Source: a virus
Taxonomy: Duplodnaviria; Heunggongvirae; Uroviricota; Caudoviricetes
Reading direction: 5' to 3' (one strand)
Virus record (IMG/VR): IMGVR_UViG_2724679293_000007
Coordinates: 1 to 64,000 of that record
DNA length: 64,000 bases
Shown in pieces: positions 10,292 to 48,412 of this stretch. The notes beneath the pieces were generated by a model. The model had not been told where the DNA came from. It saw nothing but the letters and a program-made list of their open reading frames with translations, and searched no databases. Positions within the stretch are counted from its first letter, which is position 1; each line of letters starts with the position of its first letter. The position numbers and the translations under genes were made by a program.

Positions 10292-10304
10292 TGACATGTG
10301 ACTT
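10292..10304 (+). promoter_or_regulatory. late-promoter element TGACATGTGACTT upstream of pacA
   Basis: Member of the recurring AAGTNACTT-like family seen upstream of several late genes in this window. Confidence 0.35.
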
Positions 10305-10349
10305 TCGTTACCCTCGCGTCAAAAAGAGTTTTTACGAAAGGAAGCATAA

Positions 10350-11543
10350 GTGACCTGGGACGATCACAAGAAGAATTTTGCTCGCCTGGCGCGAGATGGT
10401 GGTTACACCATCGCACAGTATGCCGCCGAGTTTAATCTTAACCCTAATACCGCACGTCGTTATCTCCGTGCCTTCAAAGAAGACACCAGGACAGCGGACA
10501 GCCGCAAGCCAAATAAGCCTGTCAGGAAACCACTAAAAAGCATGATCATTGATCACGCTAATGATCAACGTGCAGGTGATCACATTGTGGCTGAAATAGC
10601 TGAAAAACAAAGAGTTAATGCTGTTGTCAGTGCCGCAGTCGAGAACGCTAAGCGCCAAAATAAGCGCATAAATGATCGTTCTGATGATCATGACGTGATC
10701 ACCCGCGCCCACCGTACCTTACGTGATCGCCTGGAACGCGACACCCTGGATGATGATGGTGAACGCTTTGAATTCGAAGCTGGCGATTACCTGATAGATA
10801 ACGTTGAAGCGCGGAAGGCCGCGCGCGCTATGTTGCGTCGGTCCGGGGCCGATGTTCTGGAAACCACTCTTCTGGAAAAGTCTCTTTCTCATCTCCTTAT
10901 GCTGGAGAACGCCAGGGATACGTGTATTCGTCTGGTGCAGGAAATGCGCGATCAGCAAAAAGACGATGATGAAGGGACTCCGCCTGAATATCGTATCGCG
11001 AGCATGCTAAACAGCTGTTCCGCGCAGATAAGCAGCCTGATCAACACCATTTACAGCATCCGGAATAACTATCGAAAAGAAAGCCGGGAGGCGGAAAAGC
11101 ACGCTTTATCTATGGGGCAAGCTGGCATTGTTAAGCTGGCATACGAACGAAAGCGTGAAAATAACTGGTCAGTGCTGGAAGCAGCTGAATTCATCGAGGC
11201 GCATGGCGGGAAAGTGCCGCCCCTGATGCTGGAGCAAATCAAAGTCGATCTGCGTGCTCCTAAGACCAATACCGATGATGAGGAAAGGCAAACAGCCGTC
11301 GGTGGCCCTTCTCTTGAAGATCTGGACAAAGTTGCGCGAGAACGGGCCGCCAACCGCCGCGCCGATGCCGCATTGTGGATTGAGCAGCGTAGGGAAGAAA
11401 TCGCCGATATCGTTGATACAGGCGGTTATGGAGATGTTGATACTGAAGGTGTATCAAAAGACCCATGGCTGGAACAAGACCTGGACGAAGACGAGGAGGA
11501 AGACGAAGAAGTTACCCGCAAGCTATACGGGGATGATGATTAA
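10350..11543 (+). CDS. pacA: PacA, terminase small subunit (pac recognition)
   Basis: 397 aa, GTG start, [28 protein letters not shown]..; contains pac site; acidic C-terminus. Confidence 0.9.
10543..10701. other. pac packaging site: two clusters of TGATCA/G hexamers (Dam sites)
   Basis: Four hexamers at 10543-10582 and three at 10673-10701 (plus one at 10734) flanking a spacer, the 4+3 architecture recalled for P1 pac. Confidence 0.8.
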
Positions 11544-13027
11544 TGGCCAGAAGTTGCGTAACGGATCCACGTTGGCGCGAGCTGGTGGCGCTATATCGTT
11601 ATGACTGGATTGCGGCCGCTGATGTTTTGTTCGGCAAAACACCTACCTGGCAGCAGGATCTGATTATTGAGTCTGTGCAGGAACAGGGTAGCAAGACATC
11701 TGTTTCGTCTGGTCACGGTACCGGGAAATCAGACATGACTTCTATCATGATCATGTTGTTCATAATCATGTATCCCGGTGCCCGCGCCATTATCGTTGCG
11801 AACAAAATTCAGCAGGTAATGACCGGTATATTCAAGTACATCAAGATAAACTGGGCTACTGCCACCAGCCGTTTTCCATGGCTTGCTGATTATTTTGTCC
11901 TGACAGAAACCGCTTTCTATGAGGTTACTGGTAAAGGTGTATGGACTGTAGTACCGAAGGGCTTTCGTCTGGGAAGTGAAGAAGCTCTCGCCGGTGAACA
12001 CGCAGATCATCTTCTGTATATTATCGATGAAGCCTCCGGTGTCAGTGATAGAGCTTTCGGTATCATCACCGGTGCTCTTACCGGACAGGATAACCGCATC
12101 TTATTGCTGTCACAGCCTACACGCCCAAGCGGCTATTTCTACGATACACACCATAAACTGGCCAAGCGTCCTGGTAACCCTGATGGCGTTTATACGGCGA
12201 TCACGCTTAACAGTGAGGAATCACCGTTGGTAACGCCAGCATTTATCAAAATGAAGCTGGCGGAGTACGGCGGGCGTGATAACCCTATGTACATGATTAA
12301 GGTACGCGGCCTATTCCCTAAATCACAGGATGGCTTCCTTCTTGGACGTGATGAGGTTGAACGTGCAACGCGGCGGAAAGTCAAGATTGCAAAAGGATGG
12401 GGCTGGCTTGCATGTGTGGACGTTGCTGGTGGTACGGGACGAGATAAGTCCGTTATCAATATCATGATGGTGTCCGGCCAGCGAAATAAACGCCGTGTAA
12501 TCAACTATCGAATGCTGGAATACACAGACGTTACAGAAACGCAGCTTGCCGCCAAAATTTTCGCAGAATGTAATCCTGAGCGATTCCCAAATATCACCAT
12601 AGCGATAGACGGTGATGGGCTGGGTAAAGCAACGGCGGATCTGATGTACGAGTATTATGGTATTACCGTACAGCGTATACGCTGGGGTAAAAAGATGCAT
12701 AGCCGTGAAGATAAGAGCCTGTACTTTGATAAACGTGCTTATGCCAACGTTCAAGCCGCAGAGGCCGTAAAATCTGGTCGTATGAGACTGGATAAGGGTA
12801 ATGAAACTATTGAGGAAGCGTCGAAAATCCCTGTAGGGATTAACTCCGCAGGTCAATGGAAGGTGATGAGTAAGGAGGATATGAAGAAAAAACTCAACCT
12901 GCACTCACCAGACCATTGGGATACATATTGTTTCGCTATGCTGGCGGATTATGTTCCCCAGGATGAAGTGCTTAGCGTCGAAGACGAAGCGCAGGTTGAT
13001 GAAGCTCTGGCATGGCTTAATGAATAA
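11543..13027 (+). CDS. pacB: PacB, terminase large subunit
   Basis: 494 aa; start overlaps pacA stop (TAATG); position as in P1. Confidence 0.85.
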
Positions 13028-13051
13028 CTCATTGACCATGCCGGATAGAAA

Positions 13052-47911: not shown

Positions 47912-47922
47912 CAAGCATATCC

Positions 47923-48357
47923 TTATGCTGTAGTCGTGTTTATGGCCATAACTGCGGTATATGTTTTGCCCACATACAGCGAGTCTTCCTGGACACAAAT
48001 AATGGCGATTGGCTTGTTCTCGTTATCCAGTACAACCAGAGTGTTGAATGGGTAGTTTTTCCCTTCCTGCAACTGGCTTTGATCAAGGTCCATTCGGACA
48101 GTAATTATCCCACCTGAGTAGGTTGGCACGAGGTTGATGGTGCAAAATTGACTGGTTAGTTCTGCCAGATCGAAAGCCTTTGGCAGTTCTCCAATCTCAT
48201 AAGTGCCATCTCCTTTCTTAGTAACCAGCGAACTGGTACCGAAAACGGCCTTGCTGATTAAAAATCGAGAGCCTTTGTTAATGGACGATTCAGCGCGCCG
48301 CTGATAGTAATAGTCCAACAACTGACTCTTATAGAGGTTTGTTGAGACGTCAGACAT
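47923..48357 (-). CDS. R: R, tail-fibre associated protein (144 aa)
   Basis: ORF immediately upstream of S as in P1. Confidence 0.55.
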   Translation of the reverse strand: MSDVSTNLYKSQLLDYYYQRRAESSINKGSRFLISKAVFGTSSLVTKKGDGTYEIGELPKAFDLAELTSQFCTINLVPTYSGGIITVRMDLDQSQLQEGKNYPFNTLVVLDNENKPIAIICVQEDSLYVGKTYTAVMAINTTTA

Positions 48358-48397
48358 GATTTTCCCTAATCAATGTTGTGAAGCCTCATTGTAAGAT

Positions 48398-48412
48398 AAG
48401 TAACTTGTCACC
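48398..48412 (-). promoter_or_regulatory. late-promoter element upstream of R (reverse complement GGTGACAAGTTACTT)
   Basis: AAGTTACTT palindrome about 45 bp upstream of R start. Confidence 0.4.

Follow-up and report, generated by a model that had tools for sequence, protein, structure and literature searches.

In the C- and Mor-dependent promoters of phage Mu and in the Ogr- and Delta-dependent late promoters of P2/P4, a dyad-symmetric activator site stands in for a weak or absent -35 element, and the sigma-70 holoenzyme is brought in by a small activator. These activators are unrelated to Lpa, the late promoter activator of phage P1, whose late-promoter element, activator and host co-factor have been described since the early 1990s. 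Whereas the Mu and P2 sites are located further upstream, the P1 box, centred near -22, directly adjoins the -10 region. According to PMC10695390, P1 possesses 11 late promoters, and a 9-bp inverted repeat conserved among them is the site for Lpa. Both Lpa and the host protein SspA are needed for the late genes of P1, which serve lysis, virion structure and packaging (PMC8198154, PMC8201110). In PMC1891329, which cites Hansen et al. 2003, Lpa is presented as a sequence-specific DNA-binding activator that acts with SspA, and SspA as a contact of RNA polymerase and not of late-promoter DNA; elsewhere Lpa was labelled an RNA-polymerase-binding factor (PMC8198154). An SspA-family co-activator is likewise employed by PigR with MglA-SspA in Francisella (PMC1891329), again with unrelated proteins and differently positioned sites. 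In the present study a 64,000-nucleotide stretch of caudoviral DNA (positions 1 to 64,000 of the IMG/VR record IMGVR_UViG_2724679293_000007; hereafter the window) was analyzed, in which a recurring 9-bp palindromic element upstream of late genes had been noticed in a sequence-only reading, and the element was compared with the late promoters of P1 and its relatives with regard to architecture, distribution and conservation.

Candidate late promoters and the activator gene

The recurring elements are very probably (at a probability of about 0.94) Lpa-dependent late promoters of a P1-like phage-plasmid. The window itself is assigned to this group (Punavirus) as a plasmid prophage: in megablast searches of phage records, positions 10000-30000 were 97-98% identical to P1, P7, SJ46, RCS47 and other punaviruses, and direct BLAST against P1 (AF234172) displayed collinear blocks of 87-98% identity, with nucleotide 1 of P1 (the lox site) corresponding to window position 14622. 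In the segments shared with P1 the identity is 94-98%. Segments without a megablast match to P1 comprise 1-4478, 5766-6695, 18094-18944, 30750-33138, 40129-40537, part of the invertible C segment, 56706-59288 and 62377-64000. Architecture, orthology, the identity of Lpa, enrichment and the conservation footprint are results of the present analysis, and the dependence on Lpa and SspA as well as the start of Ps were taken from the literature and from database records.

Seven of the 11 annotated P1 late promoters map to the window (Table 1), their coordinates having been transferred from megablast alignments and from tblastn with the first genes as queries, against the annotations of AF234172. 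LP23 and LP26/LPpmgL fall beyond the 64-kb window; no hot homologue was detectable in the window, and the P1 stretch with LPhot has no megablast match. With the late promoters of P1 and P7 (AF234172, AF503408) the elements share the position relative to the genes, the 9-bp box, the 4-nt spacer, the -10 hexamer and the missing -35 element. The 19-nt core is identical to that of P1 in six of the seven, and the box of LPsit differs by a single base (AAATGACTA in P1, AAATGACAA in the window). In AF234172 the P1 orthologues carry the labels 'late promoter LPxxx', '-22 region' and 'minus_10_signal'.

Table 1. Positions and composition of the late promoters, the lpa promoter region and the lpa gene in the window, with their P1 counterparts.
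Feature	Coordinates	Strand	Box	Spacer	-10 hexamer	First gene (start)	Genes driven or function	P1 counterpart (AF234172)	Remark
LPpac	10296..10314	+	ATGTGACTT 10296-10304	tcgt	TACCCT 10309-10314	pacA (10350)	pacA-pacB	90475-90493, identical, 'late promoter LPpac'	conserved in JK004
LPmat	17298..17316	+	AAGTGACTT 17298-17306	cagt	CAGAAT 17311-17316	mat (17336)		2678-2696, identical, 'late promoter LPmat'	
LPpro	26462..26480	+	AAGTGACTA 26462-26470	gtgt	TAAATT 26475-26480	prt (26523)	prt-pro	17251-17269, identical, 'late promoter LPpro'	conserved upstream of JK004 prt orthologue
LPlyz	30181..30199	-	AAGTGATTT 30199-30191	gcat	TATCCT 30186-30181	lyz (30093)		20969-20987, identical, 'late promoter LPlyz'	
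LPdar	40106..40124	-	AAGTTACTT 40124-40116	tgca	TACCAT 40111-40106	lydA (40077)	lydA-lydB-hdf-darA-ddrA-ddrB operon	31212-31230, identical, 'late promoter LPdar'	
LPs (Ps)	48379..48406	-	AAGTTACTT 48406-48398	atct	TACAAT 48393-48388	R (48357)	R-S-U tail-fibre genes	38318-38336, identical, 'late promoter LPs'	
LPsit	56684..56702	-	AAATGACAA 56702-56694	ctcg	TAGAAT 56689-56684	pmgC (56652)	pmgC-tub-pmgB-sit and downstream genes	46608-46626, orthologue, 'late promoter LPsit'	
Olpa/Plpa	9725..9766	+				lpa	C1 operator overlapping sigma-70 promoter of lpa; early, repressor-controlled	89904-89945, orthologue	
lpa	9812..10264	+					late promoter activator, 150 aa		open reading frame list, Pfam

The architecture is uniform. 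Box and -10 hexamer are separated by 4 nt in all seven promoters, and the hexamer conforms to TANNNT in six of them, LPmat carrying CAGAAT as in P1; the hexamers match TATAAT at 3-5 of 6 positions. A -35 element is not recognisable, the best match to TTGACA at a spacing of 16-18 bp amounting to 0-2 of 6 positions in all seven, and every promoter faces a late operon. The seven boxes deviate from AAGTNACTT by 0-3 mismatches. This consensus is read as an imperfect inverted repeat of 9 bp that usually has RAC in front of it and is followed by a 4-nt spacer and a -10 hexamer, mostly TANNNT, with no -35 element. Box, spacer, missing -35 element, orthology and a cognate Lpa, and hence all sequence-level features of the P1 late-promoter class, are present.

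In the sequence-only reading near-identical elements had been located upstream of pacA, mat, prt, lyz, the dar operon and R, and they had been ascribed to an Lpa-dependent late promoter signature. The ascription is borne out by orthology to the annotated P1 promoters, by near base-identity and by an Lpa that is 100% identical to that of P1. All six sites coincide with annotated P1 late promoters, but some coordinates and the membership had to be corrected. The proposed box is exact (AAGTNACTT) in mat, dar and R and differs by one mismatch each in pacA, prt and lyz, and the interval given for dar (40106-40118) is displaced by about 8 nt, so that it takes in only 3 nt of the box besides the spacer and the -10 hexamer. 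A distance of 35-55 bp to the genes had been stated; measured from the box centre to the start codon it applies to pacA (50 nt), dar (43 nt) and R (45 nt), is marginal for prt (57 nt) and mat (34 nt) and does not hold for lyz (102 nt). LPsit lies 46 nt from the pmgC start. It is this promoter, 46-54 bp closer to the gene, that is the genuine member upstream of pmgC, and not the degenerate element AAGTACTT at 56748-56755 that had been considered as such. The latter comprises 8 bp without a central base and is followed at 4 nt by TAGCAC (+) or TTTTTA (-), hence by TANNNT on neither strand; it lies inside a segment without a megablast match to P1 and was not matched by the position weight matrix (PWM) described below. 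Transcription starts at positions other than about 22 bp downstream of the box centres had been named as refuting the reading, and this test is passed for Ps, the one promoter with an annotated start: M81956, in which the -22 box and the -10 box are annotated as well, contains a 'transcription start from Ps phage-specific late promoter' (the depositors' annotation) that corresponds to window position 48379, 23 nt downstream of the box centre. The remaining starts are predicted from the fixed geometry.

The Lpa of the window is identical to that of P1 at 150 of 150 residues and matches the Pfam family PF25716 (BPP1_LPA, 'Late promoter-activating protein') with E = 3e-57, and the Olpa/Plpa region differs from P1 by two substitutions. 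An AlphaFold model, built from 11 sequences, reached a mean predicted local distance difference test score (pLDDT) of 73.6, with values above about 89 over residues 21-90, and shows three helices that lead into a beta hairpin, with a long helix making up the C-terminal part, the confident helix-helix-helix-beta-beta core spanning approximately residues 17-95. The best PDB folds retrieved with Foldseek were all winged-helix regulators (Fur/PerR, MarR, PadR, BlaI; best E = 0.011).

Since the elements are orthologous to P1 features that are annotated in GenBank and published, the late-promoter feature as such is already known. For annotation, the result provides the exact positions of seven late promoters and of the gene of their activator; it contains no new biology. 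The comparative side results, i.e., the footprint in JK004, the motif of D6 and the asymmetric RAC flank, are modest extensions.

Enrichment in the window and conservation in relatives

Exact copies of AAGTNACTT occur five times in the window (17298, 40116, 48398, 51482, 61527) against 1.1 expected, a number of at least five being reached in 3 of 100 shuffles, and with one mismatch permitted there are 38 matches against 25 expected. The composite of a box with at most one mismatch, 4 nt and TANNNT is found five times, where 0.73 would be expected and the maximum among 200 dinucleotide-preserving shuffles was four; all five composite matches are annotated promoters. A PWM was derived from ten P1 late promoters and spans the 3-nt flank, the box, the spacer and the -10 hexamer. 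The seven promoters of the window score 19.7-26.7 bits with this matrix, the lowest value being that of LPsit, and the next best match reaches 16 bits; above 15 bits there are eight matches against 0.36 expected under block shuffling. As the window is a relative of P1, the PWM test is partly circular there, and the matrix was therefore run on two diverged genomes, JK004 and D6.

The Cronobacter phage JK004 (MZ188976) differs from the window by an Lpa that is 67% identical and by a G+C content of 54%, and the late promoters are unannotated in its record. The P1-derived matrix yielded ten matches above 15 bits against 0.46 expected. Eight of these are located directly upstream of the presumed orthologues of R, gp23, gp26, prt, pacA, lyz and pmgC and, in one case, possibly of mat, the orthologues having been assigned from size and gene order, as the record names no products. 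Box, spacer and -10 hexamer are laid out as in the window. Aligned without gaps, the core of flank, box and -10 hexamer is 86.5% identical, as opposed to 40% for the surrounding 68 nt per site, which constitutes a clear phylogenetic footprint.

A different picture is presented by D6 (MF356679), whose Lpa homologue is 31% identical (tblastn). The activator homologue adjoins pacA and the late operons are present as in P1, but the box motif differs. The P1-type box is not enriched in D6, the PWM giving one match against 0.48 expected; instead R, gp23, lydA, prt, gene 7, the orf16 lysin and gene 26 are preceded by another recurring motif, approximately AAATCACAnACT (also AAATCACA(A/T)ACT), with a hexamer similar to TAnnnT behind it. 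Since the box was kept in JK004 with an Lpa of 67% identity and is not enriched in D6 with one of 31%, it tracks the activator.

Among close relatives, 79 P1-like loci in IMG/VR have an invariant LPpac box and -10 hexamer, and all seven intergenic variants differ in the flanks only. The relatives retrieved with Lpa from IMG/VR were all 99-100% identical and so offer no divergence, for which JK004 and D6, both located by tblastn, were used.

Mode of activation and competing explanations

By analogy with P1, late transcription would begin when the C1 repressor is lifted from the sigma-70 promoter that it controls and lpa (9812-10264) is expressed. Lpa would then recognise the box in place of the missing -35 element, with the box centre about 22-23 nt upstream of the start, and together with SspA, the RNA-polymerase-associated host protein, would allow the sigma-70 holoenzyme to initiate. 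Since the box is nearly symmetric, the direction of transcription would be set by the -10 hexamer. Operons for packaging (pacAB), maturation (mat), the head (prt/pro), lysis (lyz/lydAB) and antirestriction (dar) would thereby be switched on, as would the tail-fibre genes R, S and U and the tail operons from pmgC to sit.

Several points weigh against the reading as Lpa-dependent late promoters or restrict it. The dependence on Lpa and SspA and the start sites are carried over from P1. The over-representation of the bare 9-mer is marginal, and as exact copies are located inside genes and lack a -10 hexamer, the 9-mer by itself does not define a promoter. LPmat has a -10 hexamer that does not begin with TA, and the window box of LPsit keeps one of four symmetric half-site positions; because the diverged JK004 has the same ...GACAA ending in its pmgC-side box (ACATGACAActcgTAAAAT, also given as ACATGACAA), this variant looks like a tolerated natural one and not like damage. 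Sources differ on Lpa itself, RNA-polymerase-binding in PMC8198154 and DNA-binding in PMC1891329, and the winged-helix matches of the Lpa model are weak. Finally, the elements are not strict palindromes. Several boxes keep one to three of four symmetric positions, no base but G or T occupies the centre on the promoter strand in P1, the window and JK004, and the box is preceded by RAC (GAC, AAC or, once, GAG; e.g., at window positions 10293-10295 and 48407-48409), so that the functional element looks like a sequence of about 12 bp that is not strictly symmetric.

The RAC flank, the central G or T and the partial symmetry make it possible that recognition may be asymmetric, and they leave room for a different mechanism, in which Lpa does not read the box alone but is bound to RNA polymerase with SspA in an appropriator-like manner, the box being read by the complex of Lpa, SspA and holoenzyme only. 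The position of the box, 4 nt from the -10 hexamer and within the polymerase footprint, would fit such a polymerase-bound Lpa as well as the asymmetry does, and there is no solved Lpa structure. Direct binding is favoured by the literature, since PMC1891329, following Hansen et al. 2003, describes Lpa as a sequence-specific DNA binder and SspA as remaining off late-promoter DNA, and PMC10695390 regards the repeat as the Lpa-binding site; the topology of the Lpa model is moreover that of a winged helix, typical of dimeric DNA binders. Because the Foldseek E-values are weak and no PDB entry matching the Lpa sequence was found, we infer from the model that Lpa may bind the box as a winged-helix dimer. 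On balance a polymerase-bound Lpa is regarded as unlikely, and it would touch upon the biophysical mechanism only and not upon the identity of the elements as late promoters.

That the palindromes arose by chance or have another role (as a restriction or methylation target, a C1 operator or a hairpin), their position at late genes being coincidental, would agree with the weak enrichment of the bare 9-mer (five copies against 1.1, with five reached in 3 of 100 shuffles), with the two exact intragenic copies and with the two-mismatch composite matches produced by the lox half-sites at 14603 and 14632, but this is extremely improbable and effectively refuted by conservation and annotation, given the enriched fixed-spacer composite with five of five matches at annotated promoters, the orientation of each promoter towards a late operon, a box and -10 hexamer kept in JK004 while the flanks fell to 40% identity and without variation in 79 close relatives, the distinct C1 operators of the same record, which are asymmetric sequences of 17 bp located elsewhere, and a 4+1+4 palindrome too short for a stable hairpin.

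Acquired segments and further box-like matches

As had been stated in the sequence-only reading, the cargo genes are not preceded by the element: in the 250 nt ahead of the non-P1 open reading frames the best PWM match was 10.7 bits and most were below 5 bits. Since they have no late promoter of their own, the acquired genes (those for the GNAT and HD proteins and the sim-region replacements described in the following) do not belong directly to the Lpa regulon. At window positions 18094-18944 the P1 EcoP1 type III genes res and mod (about 6.3 kb) are replaced by approximately 850 bp, which contain a gene for a GNAT-family acetyltransferase of 201 aa (18235-18840). The P1 region isaA-IS1-isaB is replaced at 30750-33138 by the gene of an HD/HD_assoc-domain protein of 484 aa (30901-32355) and a small open reading frame; this segment is 98.7% identical to phage vB_EcoM-673R5. 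The HD protein is dGTP triphosphohydrolase-like and is a possible nucleotide-depletion defence protein; the PWM found no late promoter in the 250 nt upstream of its gene. Further replacements concern 1-4478, 5766-6695 and 56706-59288. Other genes have taken the place of the sim superimmunity region. A 354-aa protein in the sim-region replacement has a borderline C-terminal match to SH3_3 (26.0 bits, with a cut-off of 27), and the left 4.5 kb contain Ead/Ea22-like and DUF551 genes instead of the P1 pmg genes.

Of the remaining box-like sequences several were considered and rejected as promoters. The stretch 6335-6356, a conceivable replacement of LPhot, scores 10.4 bits, and a hot homologue was not found; at 2098-2119 (13 bits) the box overlaps the ATG of a DUF551 open reading frame and the hexamer lacks the final T. 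The lox half-sites ATAACTTCGTATA (window 14603-14640) resemble the composite at two mismatches, and their matches at 14603 and 14632 are a chance look-alike found by a loose motif search. The exact 9-mers at 51482, which lies inside sit without a good -10 hexamer, and at 61527, neither of which had been listed in the sequence-only reading, were rejected as well, both being intragenic with a poor -10 hexamer.

Two matches inside genes are shared with P1. At 61517-61538 (-) an exact AAGTGACTT is followed at 4 nt by CAGCAT (11.6 bits); it covers codons 4-6 of repL, is directed antisense toward kilA and is also present in P1 at 50726-50747, and it is probably a chance match within coding sequence. 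At 39794-39815 (-) the sequence AACGAGTGAATATCGATAGCAT (16 bits) lies inside lydA, its -10 hexamer preceding the lydB start (39751) by about 43 nt; it is identical in P1 (30900-30921), where it is unannotated, and no PWM match of at least 10 bits for this site was found anywhere in JK004. If these were additional, unannotated promoters of the Lpa type in the window and in P1, the antiholin could have its own late transcript in the case of 39794-39815, and the early lytic-replication operon could be shut off by Lpa-driven antisense transcription in the case of 61517-61538. Because both lie in coding sequence this is very unlikely, with less than one chance in ten. Beyond the window, a further unannotated match, AACAAGTGACTGGTGATAACCT (21 bits), is located in P1 at 76780-76801 (-) of AF234172, in gene 7 and upstream of gene 24, and it may be either a twelfth late promoter or a product of chance.

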